Part shown: one piece after another, positions 1-18,622 of the stretch | Position numbering within the stretch: the stretch's first letter is position 1 | Layout of the letters: the number at the start of each line of letters is the position of its first letter | DNA from: Candidatus Kuenenbacteria bacterium CG08_land_8_20_14_0_20_37_23 | GTDB taxonomy: Bacteria; Patescibacteriota; Patescibacteriia; UBA2196; GWA2-42-15 | Assembly: GCA_002778965.1 (NCBI GenBank) | Contig: PEXX01000036.1 | Coordinates: 1-37,895, forward strand | DNA length: 37,895 nucleotides | Direction of reading: 5' to 3' | The notes under the pieces: model-generated | Database searches by the model: none | What the model was told of the DNA's origin: nothing | What the model saw: only the letters and a program-made list of their open reading frames with translations | Program-made: the position numbers and the translations under genes

Positions 1-2
1 TC

Positions 3-743
3 TCAAAATCATTTCCTGCTAGGAACAGCGTAGAGAGCTTGAGTGTCCTTGATGATATTTCGCTTGAAGTGTTGGAGTCAGAATTTTTTTGTATCGTTGG
101 TCCCTCTGGCTGCGGTAAGAGCACGATAATCAATCTCGTTGCTGGTTTCTTTCCGGCAGATAATGGAAAAATCACCATTGATCACAAACCAGTTACTGCG
201 CCTGATTCATCAAGAACAGTTGTTTTTCAAGAATACGCACTTTTCCCTTGGAAAACAGTTTTTGAAAATATAGAATTTGGCTTGAAGTGCAAAAACGTTG
301 AAGATCGAGAGCGTCAACGTATTGTGCAAGAACTTCTCAAAAAAGTTAGGCTTGAAAAATTTACTGATAATTATCCTCACGAGTTGTCTGGAGGGATGAA
401 ACAGCGCGTTGCTTTAGCACGAGCCTTTGCGGTAAAACCAGACATCATTTTAATGGATGAGCCTTTCGCTTCGCTCGATCAACAAACACGGGACTTGCTC
501 CAGGAGGAGCTAATAAACTTTCAAGTCGAACTTAAACAAACTATTCTTTTTGTCACTCACAATGTAGAAGAAGCACTTTTTTTAGGAGACAGAATTTTAG
601 TATTGAGTCATCGTCCATCAAGAATTAAATCACTTGTTTCTGTACCATTTGACAAACCACGTTCTCCTGATATTCGAAACGAGAAACAATTTTTGGATTT
701 GAAGAATAAAATTTGGCACTCGCTACGCGAGGAAATAGTATAA
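3..743 (+). CDS. ABC transporter ATP-binding protein, nitrate/sulfonate/taurine (NitT/TauT) type; 5' end probably outside the window
   Basis: The frame stays open to the window start (the track start at 39 is TTG). Walker A GPSGCGKST, signature LSGGMKQR, Walker B ILMDEPF. Confidence 0.85.
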   Translation, partial: SKSFPARNSVESLSVLDDISLEVLESEFFCIVGPSGCGKSTIINLVAGFFPADNGKITIDHKPVTAPDSSRTVVFQEYALFPWKTVFENIEFGLKCKNVEDRERQRIVQELLKKVRLEKFTDNYPHELSGGMKQRVALARAFAVKPDIILMDEPFASLDQQTRDLLQEELINFQVELKQTILFVTHNVEEALFLGDRILVLSHRPSRIKSLVSVPFDKPRSPDIRNEKQFLDLKNKIWHSLREEIV

Positions 744-756
744 ACGCCTGCCAAAA

Positions 757-1103
757 ACGAAAGCGAGGACTGCGCGGAATTCCCCCCTTCCGCGCCGTCC
801 GAGTCCGAATTGAAGCCCCGCCACTGCCTCGCTCCGCTCGGCAACCCCGAAGAAAAATGTTCCTTGCTTTTCAGATTTGCGCGCGCCCGATTTTTTCTGA
901 AAAAGGAAAGGACATTTTTTCTTTTGGGTTCTGCCCTGAATACTTCGGGCAGTGTGGCGGGGCGAAATGCGGACTTGGTTTTGCCAAAACTATTTTCTGG
1001 GGGAAAGAATTTCGCAAAACCTCGGCTGATGTTTGTTTGCGGGGCGGGAAGAAAAAGGGGTCCGGGGAAAATGAATTCCCGCTCCGCCCTCGCTTCGGCT
1101 GGC
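757..1103 (+). ncRNA. Unclassified GC-rich structured intergenic element (candidate large ncRNA, alternatively a MITE-like insertion)
   Basis: Nested complementary segments. Closing helix 758-768/1088-1097 with one bulge. Hairpin 767-800 (GCGCGGAA/TTCCGCGC plus GGAC/GTCC). Perfect 10-bp long-range helix 815-824/954-963 (GCCCCGCCAC/GTGGCGGGGC). Helix 843-865/903-930 encloses hairpin 868-875/896-903. Hairpin 931-936/947-952. Helix 962-968/1009-1015. G-U pairs in the 843-930 helix weakly favour the + strand. Only non-protein-like ORFs are present. Confidence 0.35.
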
Positions 1104-1143
1104 GGCGGAAAAACTCAAAGAGAAACTAAAAATTTGTTTAAGT

Positions 1144-1791
1144 CTAAAGTAGTAACCGATTGAACTGTATCATATAGCCGAGTCCAGATTGTGCACCGAC
1201 AAGTTCGGCGGTAATGACAACAATCCAGCCAACCCCAAGACCGATTTTCAAACCAGCAAAAATATGAGGTAAGGAGCTCGGGATAAGAATGTCGGTCAAA
1301 AATCTTTTCTTGTTTGAACCTAGGCTAAGAGCGACCCTTTTGTGAATTTCTTCCACAGCCATTACACCAAAAAGTGTATTAGTGAAAATCGGAAAGAATG
1401 CACCTAAAAAAACCAAAAAATATGCAGGAGCATCACCAAGACCAAACCAAAGAATTGCAAGAGGAATCCATGCGATTGGAGGAATCGGACGAAGTAATTC
1501 TATGATTGGGATAAAAAATGGTGTAATTTTTTGATTAGAGCCCAAAAGTAAACCAAGCCCTATTCCTAGCACTGAGGCAAAAAGAAAACCAATAAGAACT
1601 CGTTGCAAGCTTGCAAAAATATCAGAGATTAAAGAACCCGTACCGAACAGATCAATGAATGCATTTGCAACATTTAGAGGGCTTGGTAAAAGTTGTGTAT
1701 TTATAAATTCTAGAGACGCTGTTATTTGCCAAACAAAAATCAGAAAAACAATAGGAATAATTGCTTGCATTGTGTGTCTCAATATTTTCAT
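1144..1791 (-). CDS. ABC transporter permease (SsuC/TauC-like, BPD_transp_1), apparently C-terminally short
   Basis: Multi-TM protein with an EAA-loop-like VEEIHKRVALSLG segment and a GAQSGLGYMI motif. It ends 6 residues after that motif, where family members normally carry one more TM helix. Confidence 0.8.
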   Translation of the reverse strand: MKILRHTMQAIIPIVFLIFVWQITASLEFINTQLLPSPLNVANAFIDLFGTGSLISDIFASLQRVLIGFLFASVLGIGLGLLLGSNQKITPFFIPIIELLRPIPPIAWIPLAILWFGLGDAPAYFLVFLGAFFPIFTNTLFGVMAVEEIHKRVALSLGSNKKRFLTDILIPSSLPHIFAGLKIGLGVGWIVVITAELVGAQSGLGYMIQFNRLLL

Positions 1792-4491: not shown

Positions 4492-6702
4492 ATGACTAAC
4501 TGTGAAAATACAACAACAAAATACCTCAAATATGCTGTTTGGGGATGTTTATATTTAGTTTTGATTACGCCTCTTCTTGTCAGTTCAAAATTTATTTTTC
4601 CTTTTATAACCCTAAAGGTAATCTACTTCAGAATAGTCGTTGAAATAGCCATCTTTTTTTACCTTATACTCGCTTTGGCTAATCCGTATTTCAAGCCGAA
4701 ATTCAATAAACTAATATGGCTTATATTTTGCTTTGGCCTAATTGTTTTTTTGACAGGGCTTTTAGGCGTCAACCCGTATAAGAGTTTTTGGGGAACAATA
4801 GAAAGAGGGGAGGGATTTTTAACCATTGCGCATTTAATCGCCTATTTTTTTATTTTAGCTCAAGTTGTAAAAACTAAGCGCGATTGGCTCAATTTTTTAA
4901 GCGCCCATGTAATCACCAGTTTTCTAGTTTGCATCTATGCCATAGCCCAGCGCTTTGGCGCGAGTTGGGCGATCCACTCCGGTGAAGATAGGCTTTCTTC
5001 AACGCTTGGCAACGCTGCATATCTTGGCGGATATATGCTCGGTAATTTTTGGTTCTGTCTGCTTTTGTTTTTTGAGAAAAAAAAATATTTGTGGAAAATA
5101 TTTTTTGCTCTAGTTGGGATATTCCAAGTATATATACTTTTCCAAACTCAAACTCGCGGAGCTATGCTCGCTTTTATTTTAAGTCTTTTTTTATTTTCAA
5201 TAATCGGTCTTTTTTTTATTAAAAATCGTTCTGTCAAAATAACATCATTAATTATTTTCGCGTTGCTCCTCTTTGCCGGCAGTTTTAGTTTTATGAATCA
5301 CGCTAAGCCGTGGATCAGCGAAAGAGGCCCTATTCACCGCCTTTTAAATATATCTACCAATAGTATTACGGTTGAATCGCGTCTTTTGGCATGGGACTCT
5401 TCCTGGCAAGGTTGGCAAGATCGATTTTTATTTGGTTATGGATGGGAAAACTATAATGTCGCCTTTAATAAATATTTTCATCCGGAAATATACCGCGATG
5501 CTGGATCACAAGTCTGGTTTGATCGCGCTCATAACACAATTTTTGATATTGCTGTAGCGACCGGAATTATCGGCTTAATAATTTATCTCACAATTTTTTT
5601 CTGCGCTTTTGTTATTCTTTTCAAAAAAATACGCGACCAGCAAAATATTTTTTTGAGCCTTGTCCTTTGTATGTTTCTCATAGCGCATTTTTTGCAAAAT
5701 ATATTTGTTTTTGATTCAATTCCAACATATATTATGCTTTTTTCCGCTTTTGGAATCATTGCTTATATAGGCAATGATCATCAAAATGAAACAAAAACAG
5801 AGATAAAACCAATTAATCTTTATGCTATTGTTTTTGGATTTGTCGCGTTAATAATAGCTGTTTTTTCTTTTAACATCAATCCAGCGCAAGCCAATCAAGC
5901 AGGCCTTGATGCAATGAAGCTGTTTTATACCGGCAATGTCGTTGCTGCCGTCAATGGTTTTGACCGGGCCATTCAGATGGCTACATATCAAACACCTGAA
6001 TTGCGGCAGAAGCTAGCAGAAAGTATTATTTCGCACTATAATACCGGCTCTAATTTAAAAACGGACGAGGACGAAGCAATCACGCATAAAGCAATTATTG
6101 AAATTAAAAATAATATCCAAGAAGACCCGTTGGAAGCAAGAAACTATCTATATATAATGTCACTTTATAATAGTTTATATTCAAAAGACAAGGAAAAATT
6201 GATGCAGGCAATAAATTATGGCAAAAAAGCAAAAACCCTGTCTCCGACAAGACAGCAAATTTATTTTGAATTAGGACGCGCGGCGCTCGGTCTTGGGATG
6301 ATCCAAGACGGTCTTTACTATTTCAAGAAAGCGGTTGATCTAAATCCGTCTGCGATTGATTCTTATTGGAATCTTTTGTCAGCCTATGCTATTACTGGCC
6401 AAAATGACCAGGCAGAAGCTACGCTTGCAATAATTACGAAAAAAGGAGCCGGTGAATCTAAAAAAGATTTGAAAAGATTGTTAAATATCTACGCTTCTAT
6501 CAAGTCTTTTCAAAAAATGAAAGAAATCTATGAAAAGCTTATTGTTTTAGATCCATTAAATATTGATTATCGCTTTAAACTTGCAGCCGTTTATAAAGCG
6601 CTCGGGGATGTGTCAACAGCCAGATCAACAGCATTGACTATCAAAGAAATAAAGCCGGAAGCCGTTGTTGAAGTTGATAAATTTTTAGAAACATTGGAAT
6701 AA
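4492..6702 (+). CDS. O-antigen ligase (Wzy_C) family membrane protein fused to C-terminal TPR repeats
   Basis: About 440 aa polytopic membrane region with a QTRGAMLAF-type O-antigen ligase loop, then about 270 aa of TPR-like helical repeats. ATG at 4492 is preferred over the TTG at 4456. Confidence 0.75.
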   Translation: MTNCENTTTKYLKYAVWGCLYLVLITPLLVSSKFIFPFITLKVIYFRIVVEIAIFFYLILALANPYFKPKFNKLIWLIFCFGLIVFLTGLLGVNPYKSFWGTIERGEGFLTIAHLIAYFFILAQVVKTKRDWLNFLSAHVITSFLVCIYAIAQRFGASWAIHSGEDRLSSTLGNAAYLGGYMLGNFWFCLLLFFEKKKYLWKIFFALVGIFQVYILFQTQTRGAMLAFILSLFLFSIIGLFFIKNRSVKITSLIIFALLLFAGSFSFMNHAKPWISERGPIHRLLNISTNSITVESRLLAWDSSWQGWQDRFLFGYGWENYNVAFNKYFHPEIYRDAGSQVWFDRAHNTIFDIAVATGIIGLIIYLTIFFCAFVILFKKIRDQQNIFLSLVLCMFLIAHFLQNIFVFDSIPTYIMLFSAFGIIAYIGNDHQNETKTEIKPINLYAIVFGFVALIIAVFSFNINPAQANQAGLDAMKLFYTGNVVAAVNGFDRAIQMATYQTPELRQKLAESIISHYNTGSNLKTDEDEAITHKAIIEIKNNIQEDPLEARNYLYIMSLYNSLYSKDKEKLMQAINYGKKAKTLSPTRQQIYFELGRAALGLGMIQDGLYYFKKAVDLNPSAIDSYWNLLSAYAITGQNDQAEATLAIITKKGAGESKKDLKRLLNIYASIKSFQKMKEIYEKLIVLDPLNIDYRFKLAAVYKALGDVSTARSTALTIKEIKPEAVVEVDKFLETLE

Positions 6703-6743
6703 ATGTCCAACGCATCAAATGCTGATAAAATTTTTCTATTTTT

Positions 6744-8948
6744 ATGCTTAAAAAGATATTACTCATAACAATCGTTTCCGTTTTGCTCCTTATAAGAGGA
6801 TCTTTTAGGAATGCTCAAAAAATAGATGCTGAAGAAAACATATTGGCAGAACATATTTCTAACGAAGTCATCATTAAACTAAAAAATTCAGACAAAATAT
6901 ATTTACTGAAAACCACTTACGGCTTGCATGAAGTTATTGAAGTCAACCAGAGGAATCAAACGATAGAATATATTGAACCAAACTATCTTTATCGTGCGGC
7001 GATAGAGCCGCATGACCCTTTCTATACGCAGGAGTTGCATCTTTCCAGTACACGGGCGAATCTTGCATGGAATTATACGACCGGAAGCAAAGATTACACT
7101 ATTGCGATTATTGATACTGGAGTTGATATTGATCATGAAGATTTAAAAAATAACATCTGGCGCAATGTAGATGAGATTCAAGGAAACAGCATTGACGATG
7201 ACGGCAATGGTTTTATTGATGATGTAGTTGGTTGGGATTTTACATCAGAAAACCCTGACCCAAGGCCTAAATTCACAAATAATTACAGTTTTCTTGGTAT
7301 AAACCACGGCACAATCGTAGCTGGCATAGCAGCAGCCGAGGGAAATAACAGCATTGGCATAGTTGGTATAACTTGGCACGCTAGTATAATGTCTCTAAGG
7401 GTGCTGGATAGTTCTGGCACTGGCAATACTTTTGACGTTGCGAGAGCGATTGATTATGCAAGAGAAAACAATGCTCATATAATTAATCTTAGTTTTGTCG
7501 GTAGCGGTTATTCTGCGACATTGAATAAAGCCATAGAAAAAGCACATCAAGCGGGCATTTTAATCATAGCTGCTGCTGGCAATGAAGTTAACGAGGGAGT
7601 CAATATGAGCGATTCTCCTCAATATCCAGTGTGTCATGATGGATATAACGGCGACAATTGGGTTATTGGCGTGGCATCTCTTGATAATTCGGACAAACTG
7701 GCCAGTTTTTCAAATTATGGCGATTGTATTGACGTGGCAGCTCCTGGCGTTGGTCTTTTCAGCACTCTTTACCAAAATGAAAATTACAAAAAATTTAATC
7801 GAGCTTATGGCGGCTATTGGTCAGGTACGTCTGTATCAGCGCCACAAGTAGCCGGCTTAGCAGTTCTTTTAAAATCACTCAAGCCGATGCTTTCCGTTTT
7901 TGAGCTAAAAGATTTAATAATCAGTAATGCTGATAATGTTGAACATAAAAATTTTTTGTATCAAAACAAACTTGGCAGTGGAAAAATAAATATTTTGCAA
8001 TCAGTCATCGCTGCTCGAAAAATCACACCAAAAGCGGAATTATCTTTTGATAGAATAATTACCAGCCCTGACTCCAATGGTGGCCCGCACATTAAAATAT
8101 TTAAAGCCGATAAATTGGAAACTCAATTTTTTGCTTTTGAGGAAGATAAAATTTTTGGAGCCAATGTCGCTACTGTGGATATCAGTCAAGATGAGGTAGA
8201 AAATATTATAGTCAGCGCGGCCAAAGGTGAAAAGCCGTGGGTAAAAATTTTTGACATCTACGGCAATCAAAAAGCTAAATTTCTCGCTTTTGACGAAAAT
8301 TTTATTGGCGGAGTCAAAATTGCGGCCGGAGATGTTGATCATGACGGGGAAGACGAAATTGTCGCGGTGCCTGAAAGCGATTACGCCCCGATTGTTAAGA
8401 TATTTGCCTTAACAGGTTCATTGGAAAAAGAATTTTACGCTTTCAATAAATTTTTTACCAAAGGACTGAATATCGCTGTGGCTGATATAAATAATGACAA
8501 ATTTGATGAAATAATCATTACTCCAAGCCATGGCACATCGCCGATTATTAAATTTTTTAATTACGCGGGTTTGATAATCGGTCAATTTATGGCAAATGAC
8601 GCAAATTTTTTTAACGGCGTAAATATAGCTGTTGGAGATATCAATGGCGATAATCAACTGGAAATAATTACTGGTAATCGAGTAGGCGCTTCGCCTGAAG
8701 TTAAGATATTCAATGTTTCTGGGGTGATCTTGCGTAGATTTTTGGCCTATCATGAAAATTTTATCGGCGGAGTCAATGTGGCCGCTGGTGACATCAATGG
8801 CAACGGAATTGATGATATCGTCACAGGTGCCGGACCGGGCGGAGGTCCGCATGTAAGAATATTTACAGCTGACGGCCAAGTCATTACGCAATTTTTTGCC
8901 TATGATCAAAAATTCAGAGGGGGCGTAGCGGTTTCTGTAGAAAAATAA
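6744..8948 (+). CDS. Secreted subtilisin-family (S8) serine protease with C-terminal FG-GAP/VCBS-like repeat domain
   Basis: Signal anchor and an I9-like propeptide. Catalytic triad contexts IIDTGVD, NHGT and GTSVSAP. Six roughly 46-aa repeats follow (HIKIF, WVKIF, IVKIF, IIKFF, EVKIF, HVRIF, each followed by GDxxxDGxDEI-like loops). Confidence 0.85.
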   Translation: MLKKILLITIVSVLLLIRGSFRNAQKIDAEENILAEHISNEVIIKLKNSDKIYLLKTTYGLHEVIEVNQRNQTIEYIEPNYLYRAAIEPHDPFYTQELHLSSTRANLAWNYTTGSKDYTIAIIDTGVDIDHEDLKNNIWRNVDEIQGNSIDDDGNGFIDDVVGWDFTSENPDPRPKFTNNYSFLGINHGTIVAGIAAAEGNNSIGIVGITWHASIMSLRVLDSSGTGNTFDVARAIDYARENNAHIINLSFVGSGYSATLNKAIEKAHQAGILIIAAAGNEVNEGVNMSDSPQYPVCHDGYNGDNWVIGVASLDNSDKLASFSNYGDCIDVAAPGVGLFSTLYQNENYKKFNRAYGGYWSGTSVSAPQVAGLAVLLKSLKPMLSVFELKDLIISNADNVEHKNFLYQNKLGSGKINILQSVIAARKITPKAELSFDRIITSPDSNGGPHIKIFKADKLETQFFAFEEDKIFGANVATVDISQDEVENIIVSAAKGEKPWVKIFDIYGNQKAKFLAFDENFIGGVKIAAGDVDHDGEDEIVAVPESDYAPIVKIFALTGSLEKEFYAFNKFFTKGLNIAVADINNDKFDEIIITPSHGTSPIIKFFNYAGLIIGQFMANDANFFNGVNIAVGDINGDNQLEIITGNRVGASPEVKIFNVSGVILRRFLAYHENFIGGVNVAAGDINGNGIDDIVTGAGPGGGPHVRIFTADGQVITQFFAYDQKFRGGVAVSVEK

Positions 8949-15744: not shown

Positions 15745-16032
15745 ATGAACTCTATTCTACCTCAAACAATCTCTATCAGTGATTTACAGAAGAGAACCAA
15801 AGAAATATTTGATACTAAATTACAGGATAATGCCCCAACTCTGATACTCAATAGAAATGAGAAAGTCGGAGTTTTAATCAAACCCATGTTTTTTGAGGAA
15901 TTAATGTCAACCTATGAAGATTATCTGGACGGATTGGAGCTAATGAACGCCATCAACACCACTCCCAAAAAAGACCTTGAACCTTGGGATAAAATAAAGT
16001 TAGAGTTAAAAAAACACGGCAAATTATCCTAA
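15745..16032 (+). CDS. Type II antitoxin, Phd/YefM family
   Basis: 95 aa with N-terminal ISISDLQKRTKEIFD...PTLILNRNEKVGVLI typical of Phd/YefM. Lies 3 nt upstream of the toxin gene. Confidence 0.75.
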   Translation: MNSILPQTISISDLQKRTKEIFDTKLQDNAPTLILNRNEKVGVLIKPMFFEELMSTYEDYLDGLELMNAINTTPKKDLEPWDKIKLELKKHGKLS

Positions 16033-16035
16033 AAT

Positions 16036-16293
16036 ATGTACAAAATATTTCTTACTAGTAATGCCAAAAAGAGCTTATTTAAGTTGCCTCAAGAAACCGT
16101 AGAAAAAATCAATCGGGTCTTTGATATATTACAGCATAATCCCTTCACCGCTGATCACCATATCAAAAAATTACACCAGCCATTAATCGGCTATCGTTAT
16201 AAAGTCTGGCCCTATCGCATTTTATATACTGTGGATAATTCCCAAAAAATAATTGTAGTTTACCGCATTTTTCATCGTGGTAGGGGATATTAA
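16036..16293 (+). CDS. Type II toxin, RelE/ParE family
   Basis: 85 aa with the pattern NP...KKL...GYRYKVWPYRILYTVD...IIVVYRIFHRGRGY characteristic of the RelE/ParE superfamily. Confidence 0.8.
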   Translation: MYKIFLTSNAKKSLFKLPQETVEKINRVFDILQHNPFTADHHIKKLHQPLIGYRYKVWPYRILYTVDNSQKIIVVYRIFHRGRGY

Positions 16294-16330: not shown

Positions 16331-16748
16331 ACCACGCCTATTATCACCAGTATAGTCTTTAAACACATTCAGCCATTCCCTCGGCTGTTTTTTATTACTC
16401 TTTAAATTATGCCAACTTGACAACAGTCTCTTTTGGCCATTCACATTTCCAGTAAAACAAGGGAGACCCTACGGCCCGCCAATCAAACCAACCCCGCCTA
16501 AACATTTCATATAGACTATATGAAATGTTTAGGCAGCGGCCCACACTCATCTCTCCACCGCCTAAATGGCCGGTATAGTCTATTTCGGCCATTCAGGCAC
16601 CGACGGAGAAAGGGGAGTCGCGAGCGCTAACCCGCCCTCGCCCAACAGCTCCCGGCAATGGCTCGTACAGTCTATTCGAGCCATTTTCTGTCACCCCCCC
16701 CAGATCTCCCCGCTAAATCGCTAAAACAGACTATATTAGCGCTTTCTG
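16331..16748. repeat. Tandem array of six homologous hairpin/palindrome units with conserved core A(T/C)AG(T/A)CTAT
   Basis: U1 has core 16351-16358 with a degenerate stem. U2 is 16411-16437. U3 (16496-16534) is a perfect 19+1+19 palindrome. U4 is 16560-16598, U5 is 16657-16685, U6 is 16719-16741. Units share a C-rich CCGCCTAAA 5' flank and a TTYAGGC/TTTCTG 3' flank. Stem arms differ between units but stay complementary. Confidence 0.8.
16370..16393 (+). terminator. Weak intrinsic terminator after the TA operon
   Basis: CAGCC-ATTCCCTC-GGCTG followed by TTTTTT. Confidence 0.35.
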
Positions 16749-16752
16749 CCGC

Positions 16753-16779
16753 CCGCCTGATTCTTTCTAGGCGGTTTTT
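16753..16779 (+). terminator. Intrinsic terminator-like hairpin closing the hairpin array
   Basis: CCGCC-(12-nt loop)-GGCGG followed by TTTTT. Confidence 0.5.
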
Positions 16780-16821: not shown

Positions 16822-17400
16822 ATGCAAAACTGCTTTGAAAAATTCAATCAAAAAATCAACCATAAAAATAATATCATCTATATTTTTATTGACGCCTCTA
16901 ACCTATGGGAAGCGCAAAAAGCCAAGGGTAGATTTCTAGATTATGAAAAAACCCTGAAATTTATCAGGGATAATTTCACTTATTACAGCGCTTACCCGGC
17001 CGAGGGAACAAGGAATTATAATCTCGACGGCCGACATAAATTTTTTACTTTTCTCAACAAAAGCCTGGGATTTGAAGTGCGCAAAAAAGAACTCAAAAGA
17101 ATTACCGTGGTAGATGAGCATGGCGAGAGTATTAAAGAAAAAGGAGATATGGATGTTTGGATTACTCTCGACGCGGTCCATCATCTAAACAAATATCACA
17201 CCGCCATTCTATTTACGGGCGACTCGGATTTTCTCCCTCTGATCAACTACCTAAAAAATAACGGTAAAAAAGTTTTTATATTTTCTTCTCAAAATAATAT
17301 CTCCGAAGAATTGCGAACTGGCGGCGACGGCTATGCTGATGTCCTGAAAATACCCCGCATCTGGGGCCGAGCGTTAAAGTACAGGGAAGAAAAGCAATAA
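16822..17400 (+). CDS. NYN-domain (LabA-like, PIN-related) putative ribonuclease
   Basis: IFIDASNLW at the N-terminus, then GDMDVWITLDAV and ILFTGDSDFLPLINYLKNNGKKV, the conserved acidic motifs of NYN/PF01936-type proteins. Confidence 0.8.
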   Translation: MQNCFEKFNQKINHKNNIIYIFIDASNLWEAQKAKGRFLDYEKTLKFIRDNFTYYSAYPAEGTRNYNLDGRHKFFTFLNKSLGFEVRKKELKRITVVDEHGESIKEKGDMDVWITLDAVHHLNKYHTAILFTGDSDFLPLINYLKNNGKKVFIFSSQNNISEELRTGGDGYADVLKIPRIWGRALKYREEKQ

Positions 17401-17650: not shown

Positions 17651-18622
17651 TTACTTGCCCAATGAATGAAAACTCCGGTGAATATCTTTCAGCCTCTTAT
17701 TAGTCACATGAGTATAAACTTGCGTCGTGGTAATAGACGAGTGGCCGAGCATCTCCTGAATGGCGCGCAAATCAGCCCCTTGGGAAAGCAGATCGGTGGC
17801 GTAAGAATGGCGGATCGTATGCGGCGAAGTAAATAGCGGCAGGCCGGATAATTTCACATATTTTTTTATAATTCTTTCCACCGAGCGCGCTGTCAGGCGC
17901 GCGTTTTCTTGATCCAATTCTTTGTCGTTAACATTGGGACTCATGTTGATAAATAGGGGAGCATAGTTATCATGGCGCGCCTCAAGATATTTTTTGAGCC
18001 ATTCCATCGCCCGCTCCGAAATATAAACCGTTCTGATTTTTTTCCCTTTACCAATAATTGATAATTCCATATCCTTATTTTTAAGGTTTAGCTGTTCAAT
18101 ATTAAGCGACGTTAACTCTGATACCCGCAGTCCGGTAGAAAATAATACTTCCATCAGCGCCCGGTCACGTAAACCCGCGGCTGTTTTTATATCCGGCATC
18201 TCCAAAAGTCTTTCTACCTGTTCCAAGGTCAGAAATTTTATCTTATTATCAGCCTTGGCATCTTTCGGTAAATTAATTTTTTTAGCCGGCAAGCATTTGA
18301 TATCGCGATCAGTAAAGTAGTTGAGTAGCGCGCGCAAAGCGATCAGATAATAATTTTGCGTTGTTTTTTTTAGCAGGTCCCCGGTACTAGATGACCTGGC
18401 CCGGGATAAAAAAATCTTGTAGGCCCAAATATCGTCTGCGGTTAATTCAGCCGGCCTCAAATCATCCTTGGCCTTGCTATGCAAAAATTCCAAAAATTTA
18501 TTCAGGAACATGCGATAATTCTCCTGGGTTTTATTAGATAAACCCTTTTCCACCTCGCAATATTCCAAAAAATCAGTTATGCGCGCCTTAATAGATTTAG
18601 CGGTTGATTGTTGCATAAACAT
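17651..18622 (-). CDS. Tyrosine site-specific recombinase, XerC/XerD family
   Basis: N-terminal SAM-like core-binding domain. Catalytic residue contexts GLRVSEL (R), HTIRHSYAT (HxxR), GHSS (H) and VYTHV (Y). Confidence 0.9.
   Translation of the reverse strand: MFMQQSTAKSIKARITDFLEYCEVEKGLSNKTQENYRMFLNKFLEFLHSKAKDDLRPAELTADDIWAYKIFLSRARSSSTGDLLKKTTQNYYLIALRALLNYFTDRDIKCLPAKKINLPKDAKADNKIKFLTLEQVERLLEMPDIKTAAGLRDRALMEVLFSTGLRVSELTSLNIEQLNLKNKDMELSIIGKGKKIRTVYISERAMEWLKKYLEARHDNYAPLFINMSPNVNDKELDQENARLTARSVERIIKKYVKLSGLPLFTSPHTIRHSYATDLLSQGADLRAIQEMLGHSSITTTQVYTHVTNKRLKDIHRSFHSLGK

Follow-up and report, generated by a model that had tools for sequence, protein, structure and literature searches.

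A branched, GC-rich repeat family of CPR bacteria as a candidate boundary module of restriction-modification islands

We analyzed the 400-nt spacer at positions 744-1143 of contig PEXX01000036.1 from Candidatus Kuenenbacteria bacterium CG08_land_8_20_14_0_20_37_23; the window, meaning the whole stretch of DNA analyzed, is this entire contig of 37,895 bp. An earlier note, made from the letters alone, had described the spacer as a GC-rich element with nested long-range helices and had weighed a large structured RNA against a miniature inverted-repeat transposable element (MITE). The structured element is genuine, as it folds better than its shuffles and its helices are conserved in relatives. 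Homology to those relatives is confined to positions 813-1104, which comprise a four-way junction of ~150 nt (helices P1-P5) followed by hairpins P6 and P7. The reading we favor, tentatively and with somewhat less than even confidence, is that 813-1104 is a solo copy of a family of GC-rich, multi-hairpin DNA modules found across the Candidate Phyla Radiation (CPR, Patescibacteria), which would form the boundaries of restriction-modification (RM) islands that integrate at tRNA genes. In the loci compared, complete copies are shown to be polar boundary repeats of small, putatively mobile RM islands.

We hypothesize that the module acts as DNA, folding back strand-symmetrically into a hairpin or cruciform that would mark the edges of a cargo bay. 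It may also serve as a recombination substrate: its anatomy suggests that islands could swap, invert or lose cargo and parts of the module through it. On this view, the window copy would be a relic that remained at a rearrangement breakpoint after losing its outward ~70 nt.

CPR bacteria make up a large share of bacterial diversity, and their mobile elements and structural or regulatory nucleic acids are almost unknown. The family offers a concrete handle on the movement of defence genes between tiny genomes and a sequence marker for RM islands in metagenomes, and it is one apparent cause of breaks in CPR contigs.

Relatives and their genomic context

The first relative was reached through the permease gene beside the element, on a Magasanikbacteria contig carrying a stretch that is 78% identical and shows clear compensatory changes. 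A pattern built from these two copies matched 31 stretches in a collection of species-representative genomes and at least 120 in metagenome contigs; it found no match in a collection of viral contigs, on which ground we rejected a phage origin. The conserved loop motif alone retrieved at least 119 further stretches, ~55 of which are true members according to the covariance model. The relatives total more than 200, nearly all from CPR/Patescibacteria contigs, whose titles name Parcu-, Magasanik-, Moran-, Uhr-, Yanofsky-, Sung-, Azam-, Giovannoni-, Peregrini- and Gracilibacteria, Microgenomates and other lineages; the few contigs with non-CPR labels are probably mis-binned. Full elements in the family are 300-450 nt long, and the closest relative of 813-1104 among the matches listed (L198) is 88.6% identical to it.

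Copies are oriented with the 5′ end outward, toward the recombinase where one is present, and the 3′ end toward the cargo, with a second copy usually convergent to the first. Among the matches listed, 30/96 non-redundant copies have a homologue of DNA methyltransferases within 5 kb of their 3′ side, compared to 1/103 for the 5′ side (Fisher p = 5e-10). Pfam families that recur on the 3′ side are the D12, N6_N4, C5, N6_Mtase and EcoRI methylases, the ResIII helicase and GmrSD/HNH nucleases. The sole recurrent family on the 5′ side is a large serine recombinase (Resolvase, Recombinase and Zn_ribbon_recom domains), which starts divergently within 450 nt of the element in 16 of 121 non-redundant copies (~13%), at a clade-specific distance of ~90-240 nt.

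Of ~26 loci with a complete recombinase gene, 17 have a tRNA gene convergent with it at its 3′ end: tRNA-Ser and tRNA-Leu genes overlap the end of the recombinase coding sequence, and tRNA-Val, tRNA-Arg and tRNA-Glu genes lie 36-68 nt beyond it. We considered and rejected an attP function for the element, as the tRNA overlap sits at the C-terminal end of the recombinase, away from the element. Neighbouring copies are convergent in 12 cases, divergent in 4 and direct in 3, a convergent excess over the 25% expectation (p = 5e-4); two more convergent pairs were found besides these 19. The locus L191 is a minimal island of 2.55 kb: a tRNA-Ser gene and the recombinase gene are followed by two inverted copies, diverged in sequence and separated by 179 nt, and finally by the tRNA 3′ end again, as a 21-nt repeat. 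An arrangement in which inverted copies enclose RM genes, with an integrase and a tRNA gene at the border, is found in the family and not at the window copy.

Several relatives bear traces of rearrangement. In the left copy of L191 (4364-4730), the outward 5′ region is of the L107 subfamily and the core of the largest one, a mosaic that indicates recombination inside the element. In L094 and L105, deletions have occurred between internal repeats. Contig ends cluster in the element, with 40 of 155 contigs stopping within 500 nt downstream of the core start, and inverted repeats are expected to cause such breaks. In several contigs, the whole sequence is cargo flanked by incomplete copies in inverted orientation, and an independent European Nucleotide Archive (ENA) assembly of the window's locus (contig k141_377233) ends at 981, inside P6.

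Three further observations concern these islands. In L215 (5879-6216), a tRNA-Ser gene is followed by two tandem, perfect 50-nt repeats of its 3′ part ahead of the serine recombinase gene; the repeats look like scars of repeated integration. In L083 (5872-7429), the element-adjacent serine recombinase is split over two overlapping frames (5872-6225 and 6173-7429), either by a frameshift or by an assembly error. An extra hairpin module with a conserved loop of ~21 nt, TTGCCCCACCCnCCCGTGCGC, occurs in L083 (~5060-5100), L088, L101, L105 and L198 (4860-4910), between the 3′ end of the element and a small helix-turn-helix gene, controller-protein-like, that heads the RM cargo; its stems covary (CTTTTCC/GGAAAAG, AAAGCAC/GTGCTTT, TAACGC/GCGTTA).

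Mobile RM units with long inverted repeats, and units of RM genes plus an integrase in tRNA genes, have been described (Furuta, Abe and Kobayashi 2010, PMC2853133). As in those units, RM genes are here bracketed by imperfect inverted repeats, and in L191 the unit bearing the recombinase is integrated at a tRNA gene whose 3′ end is repeated on the opposite border. Unlike them, a single repeat family of 300-450 nt with a conserved four-way junction is common to many RM types and to CPR lineages of many candidate-phylum names. The integrase is of the large serine recombinase type and lies external to the repeat pair, short target duplications were not seen, and the window copy is without any RM genes. 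Our full-text literature searches found no text that describes this element family, and a term search of PMC12455944 found no mention of it. The general kind, RM units with long inverted repeats, is already known; for one conserved branched repeat family common to many RM types across CPR, we found no earlier description.

Anatomy and covariation

The contrast in composition that the earlier note had pointed out is real: GC content is 0.50-0.58 in 150-200-nt windows of the spacer, compared to 0.364 for the whole window. GC-rich runs lie at 879-888 (GCGCGCGCCC), 957-964 (GGCGGGGC), and at both 777-784 and 1073-1080 (GAATTCCC). Folded as RNA, the 400-nt spacer has a minimum free energy (MFE) of -163.9 kcal/mol on the plus strand (z = -4.45) and -163.5 kcal/mol on the minus strand (z = -5.79), and none of 100 shuffles folds as well on either strand. 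The parts of the element and of its window-specific flank are as follows.

744-812, plus strand: window-specific 5′ stretch in place of the family's canonical outward region of ~70 nt; no homology left of 813
767-779/788-800, plus strand: P7-type module in C-rich orientation with loop TTCCCCCC, identified by module comparison; inverted repeat, 92% complementary
813-965, plus strand: conserved core, four-way junction P1-P5; covariance model score 152.7 bits on the plus strand and 51.4 bits on the minus strand
815-824/954-963, plus strand: helix P1, GCCCCGCCAC with GTGGCGGGGC, closing the junction; perfect 10 bp with compensatory changes
826-842, plus strand: P2, a small variable hairpin, lengthened by perfect hairpin insertions in L089, L205, L223 and L119
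843-930, plus strand: P3/P4 long hairpin, with P3 at ~844-862/910-929 and P4 at 868-875/896-903; many double changes in the stem
931-952, plus strand: P5 hairpin, CTGCCC/GGGCAG; compensatory and loop-length changes across subfamilies
971-1027, plus strand: P6 hairpin with conserved loop AAAACTATTTTCTGGGG, stem 977-984/1014-1021; window's subfamily only
1039-1087, plus strand: P7 hairpin with G-rich loop GGGGTCCGGGG, stem 1039-1050/1076-1087; inverted repeat, 92% complementary
1088-1104, plus strand: conserved tail CCTCGCTTCGGCTGG; homology with L198 ends here

The covariance model for the core was trained on 40 relatives, and with filters off the 813-965 core was its sole significant match in the window. 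With blastn (word size 7), no second copy was found either, so a search for further copies, which the earlier note had proposed, leaves a single one in the window.

Most of the pairings read from the letters held up: the perfect 10-bp P1, the imperfect long helix (76% complementary at 843-871/902-930), the perfect 8-bp hairpin of P4, and the hairpins at 767-779/788-800 and 931-936/947-952. The hairpin placed at 962-1015 did not, as covariation puts that stem at 977-984/1014-1021. Pairing of the spacer's ends is seen in the window itself (761-777/1079-1095, 82% complementary) and is not conserved, since relatives have no homologue of 744-812. Complete members instead carry a canonical region of ~70 nt 5′ of P1, TGGCGGTGT...TCGAAC...AAGGAAGCCA, which is absent from the window copy.

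Covariation was found in P1, P2, P3, P5, P6 and P7. In the window's subfamily (15 relatives), pairing extends to 90.8% of cells, compared to at most 58% with slid partners, and 11 pairs change on both sides, a number reached by none of 500 shuffles. Exchanges in P1 within the set retrieved by the loop motif only include GC to AT and CG to GC or TA. P6 has two-sided changes in 5 of its 8 pairs, with 99.2% of its cells paired. The P7 stem varies among CCGCGCGG, CCCGCCCGC and GCGGGGCGGGAA, and the P7 loop in the window's subfamily reads GGGGTCYGGGG. The tip loop of P3/P4, at 876-895 in the window (TTTGCGCGCGCCCGATTTTT), is conserved family-wide; this 20-nt loop, TTTGCGCGCGCCnGATTTT, is the most conserved piece of the element.

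Two other sources of these patterns were considered and rejected. Open reading frames (ORFs) overlap the element (713-1129 and 810-1163 in the window, minus-strand ORFs in relatives), but subfamily indels are not multiples of three and conservation follows the helices, which argues against protein coding. Palindromic protein-binding sites are an unlikely source of the covariation, as arm spacing varies from 4 to ~17 nt in P2 and P5 and P1 spans 130 nt. As a separate observation, small unrelated GC-rich palindromes (~30 nt, of the type GCCTGCCCGCC...GGCGGGCAGGC) are inserted at differing sites of the core in L171, L216 and L218.

Strand symmetry and competing explanations

Of the marks generally expected of a structured RNA, the family has compensatory pairs and lacks an excess of G-U over A-C on one strand. 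Paired columns contain 38 G-U and 31 A-C in one alignment and 109 and 111 in another, and the suggestion that G-U pairs favor a plus-strand transcript loses its basis once the whole family is considered. Of 86 unique cores, 76 fold with a slightly lower MFE on the minus strand. Modules are also found inverted. In the window's subfamily, the plus strand carries P7 in its G-rich form, and the largest subfamily has the reverse complement, C-rich; the hairpin at 767-800 of the window is this same module in the opposite orientation. By our own count from the aligned sequences, the P7 loops of the two orientations match at ~17/21 and 21/23 positions. In L275 and L291, the P3/P4 tip including the conserved loop motif is inverted, and the two have since diverged from each other. 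Inverted modules keep the same duplex sequence, which argues against an RNA, whose two forms would show complementary rather than identical loops. Judged by these comparisons, the element does not appear to behave like a single strand-specific RNA, and the family is a cautionary case in that abundant covariation need not imply an RNA gene.

Several points weigh against a boundary module acting as DNA. About 87% of copies have no adjoining recombinase, and only about one third have a recognisable methyltransferase on the 3′ side; many solo copies could have another role. In almost all copies the core helices keep the same order, and the loops are more conserved than the stems; structured RNAs, or ligands made of single-stranded DNA, characteristically show this pattern too. 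For a purely duplex-DNA site it would be unusual to have a four-way junction whose closing helix of 10 bp spans 130 nt, and no requirement of large serine recombinases for such sites is known. Because both searches fixed parts of the sequence, some of the invariance seen in P1 and in the loop reflects this selection. The other breakpoint of the rearrangement proposed below for the window lies beyond the contig end, unseen.

One alternative, which we regard as unlikely, is a bidirectional transcription barrier: both strands would be transcribed, and the hairpins, P3 above all, would stop or insulate transcription and protect mRNA 3′ ends. Such a barrier would seal the RM cargo from recombinase and host genes, and in the window it would terminate two convergent transporter genes. 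Were the structure required on both transcripts, its pairing would be expected to be strand-symmetric, as it is. The base of P3 bears a GAAAAA/TTTTTC tract, whose four A-T pairs are kept in 48-52 of 58 sequences and almost never become G-C, whereas neighbouring pairs swap freely. The element fills the spacer between convergent genes here and at many other loci, and in L339, the closest relative of the window's transporter operon, the ATPase gene is likewise followed by a GC-rich spacer, unrelated in sequence but no less structured (z = -4.2). However, a consensus terminator scan found no match in the element, the pairing of P3 runs past the T-tract, and the stem beside the tract is AU-rich. 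Termination needs none of P1, P2, P5, P6, P7 or the conserved 20-nt loops. Flanking gene 3′ ends do not preferentially face the element either (58 vs 44 on the 3′ side, 36 vs 69 on the 5′ side).

We also find it fairly improbable that the element is a selfish, GC-rich palindromic repeat without function for cell or island, akin to repetitive extragenic palindromes and bacterial interspersed mosaic elements (REP/BIME) or to the GC clusters of organelles. Such a repeat would settle in harmless intergenic sites, and its compensatory changes would arise when the template is switched from one hairpin arm to the other, rather than through selection. The mosaic of hairpin modules in varying orders and orientations, the small unrelated palindromes inserted in three relatives, the symmetry of G-U and A-C, the contig breaks inside the element and its invariably intergenic location are all consistent with this. 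REP/BIME and the GC clusters of AT-rich mitochondrial genomes are likewise GC-rich imperfect intergenic palindromes, often between convergent genes, with modules that are mosaic in either orientation and linked with rearrangements. REP/BIME and mitochondrial GC clusters occur in tens to hundreds of copies per genome, with ~20-40 nt per unit. In contrast, the present family has a conserved core of 150 nt and strict polarity toward RM cargo, with strong polarity toward the recombinase as well. The 31 stretches of the genome collection come nearly all from different assemblies (fragmented metagenome-assembled genomes), with 1-2 copies per contig and two copies in three contigs only, and the 37.9-kb window has one. 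No target-site duplications were found at the solo copies examined or outside nine convergent pairs, and the family has no shared terminal inverted repeats, the consensus 5′ end (TGGCGGTGT...) being unrelated to the 3′ end. Loops of ~20 nt are kept across CPR lineages of many candidate-phylum names; neutral repeats would lose them.

More speculatively, and in our estimate doubtful, the element could be the cis-acting site of a CPR system of RM-gene cassettes, whose substrate would be a branched single-stranded DNA fold-back of either strand. The fold-back might form after DNA uptake or during replication, with cargo captured, inverted or exchanged beside the large serine recombinase; this would be an integron-like or inverted terminal repeat (ITR)-like mechanism without a described counterpart. 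Like integron attC sites and pdif sites (XerC/D), the elements are conserved boundaries of exchangeable cassettes beside a recombinase gene, and as in attC, structure is conserved more than stem sequence. attC sites are 60-130 nt long and directly oriented, and one specific folded strand is used by a tyrosine recombinase (IntI). Unlike them, the present elements are 3-5 times longer, mostly convergent and strand-symmetric, and lie beside a serine recombinase, and their recombination is inferred. Parvovirus ITRs are similar in being inverted, branched, multi-hairpin palindromes with a long outer closing stem and internal 'flip'/'flop' parts. The likeness is one of form only, as the viral contigs gave 0 matches, there is no Rep gene, and chromosomal copies are internal to the integrated island.

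A new large structured noncoding RNA (ncRNA) of ~300-450 nt, transcribed from only one of the strands to act either in trans or as a leader, for example to regulate the recombinase or the RM cargo, seems to us quite improbable. Homologues with covariation, which the earlier note had named as the sign of an ncRNA, do exist, and covariation in six helices, conserved loops and a fixed order of core helices speak for an RNA, as do high GC content in an AT-rich genome, typical of structured RNA genes, the short clade-specific distance upstream of the recombinase start, and a TATAAT-like box on the minus strand in the canonical 5′ region of several subfamilies. However, this box points outward from the core and has a degenerate sequence in the largest subfamily, so that the evidence for a promoter of the element, like that for a terminator, is equivocal. 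The absence of a G-U excess on either strand, the inversion of P7 and of the P3/P4 tip in some members with the same duplex sequence, and the convergent pairs around cargo, hard to explain for an RNA gene, all oppose a single RNA.

Scans against known RNAs were also negative. None of the 4227 models of Rfam 15 matched the window at gathering thresholds, including those for group I/II introns, omega RNA and GOLLD/ROOL, and a permissive Rfam search of 600-1300 gave best E-values of 1.7-4.6, far below threshold. Ten fuller relatives gave tRNA matches only, and ARAGORN found no tRNA or tmRNA in the whole window. The earlier note's failure to match the element to RNase P, tmRNA, 6S or signal recognition particle (SRP) RNA is upheld by these scans. 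The family resembles GOLLD, ROOL and HEARO/omega RNA (Rfam) in size range, GC-rich covarying structure and ties to mobile DNA, and differs from them in having no Rfam match, no strand asymmetry, inverted modules and no IscB/TnpB gene nearby.

The MITE-like reading, a non-autonomous transposon bounded by two GAATTCCC-containing arms, fits the inverted P7-type hairpins (767-800 and 1039-1087) on both sides of the window's core, but is very improbable: these arms are one hairpin module present twice in opposite orientations, not terminal repeats of the family; the closest relatives examined (L198) have the canonical 5′ region in place of the left arm; no copy examined has target-site duplications; and copies are few per contig in the genome collection, with no second one in the window.

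The window copy and its broken transporter operon

The spacer lies between the stop of an ATPase gene (743, plus strand) and the stop of a permease gene (1144-1146, minus strand), both of an ATP-binding cassette (ABC) transporter. The features adjoining the element are:

1-743, plus strand: ABC transporter ATP-binding gene of NitT/TauT type (PF00005, ABC_tran); the 5′ end is cut by the contig end, with the frame open to base 3
1105-1146, no strand assigned: unique junction sequence, which supplies the stop codon (1144-1146, minus strand) of the truncated permease gene
1144-1791, minus strand: ABC permease gene (PF00528), 215 aa, 3′ truncated

The closest relative of this operon is L339 (ATPase 73% and permease 67% identical), where the genes for the binding protein, the permease and the ATPase share one orientation and the last two overlap. 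The window permease aligns with the 257-aa L339 orthologue through residue 215 (67% identical), leaving 42 codons missing. The window ATPase gene is inverted relative to the permease and binding-protein genes, whereas ATPase and permease are co-directional in 71/71 related loci. For the window, then, the operon is broken, its permease cut at codon 215 and its ATPase inverted, with the element lying exactly at this break. The simplest reading would be an inversion of the ATPase gene together with the element, with one breakpoint at 1146. The window copy is most likely a relic or rearrangement scar, and its present role would be at most that of a structured spacer between two convergent genes.

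We considered whether the element is ancestral at this locus and rejected this, since the spacer after the L339 ATPase gene is unrelated and has no covariance-model match. That spacer (L339 2248-2418) is 171 nt long and GC-rich with nested hairpins (z = -4.16), and separates the ATPase gene from a Wzy_C/TPR gene convergent with it. At least one other related genome therefore has a structured, GC-rich spacer at the gene end in this position.

The regions of the window scanned resemble ordinary chromosome, with metK, a murA-type enzyme (EPSP_synthase family), tpiA, scpA and an XerC/D-like recombinase. Among the Pfam-scanned ORFs of the window there is no RM gene and no serine recombinase, and the 37.9-kb contig has neither a tRNA gene nor a partner copy of the element. 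The window has other GC-rich islands: one at 11.4-11.7 kb is coding (metK), and one near 16.5 kb is an unrelated hairpin array. The latter (16470-16770) is intergenic and consists of four tandem hairpins of ~45 nt, whose stems are related (CCGCCTAAA.../...TTTAGGC) and which have a loop motif in common (TATAGACTATA, GTATAGTCTAT). It follows a Phd/RelE-like pair (15745-16032 and ~16037-16290) and precedes an NYN-domain gene (16822-17400), beyond which lies the XerC/D-like recombinase gene (17651-18622).

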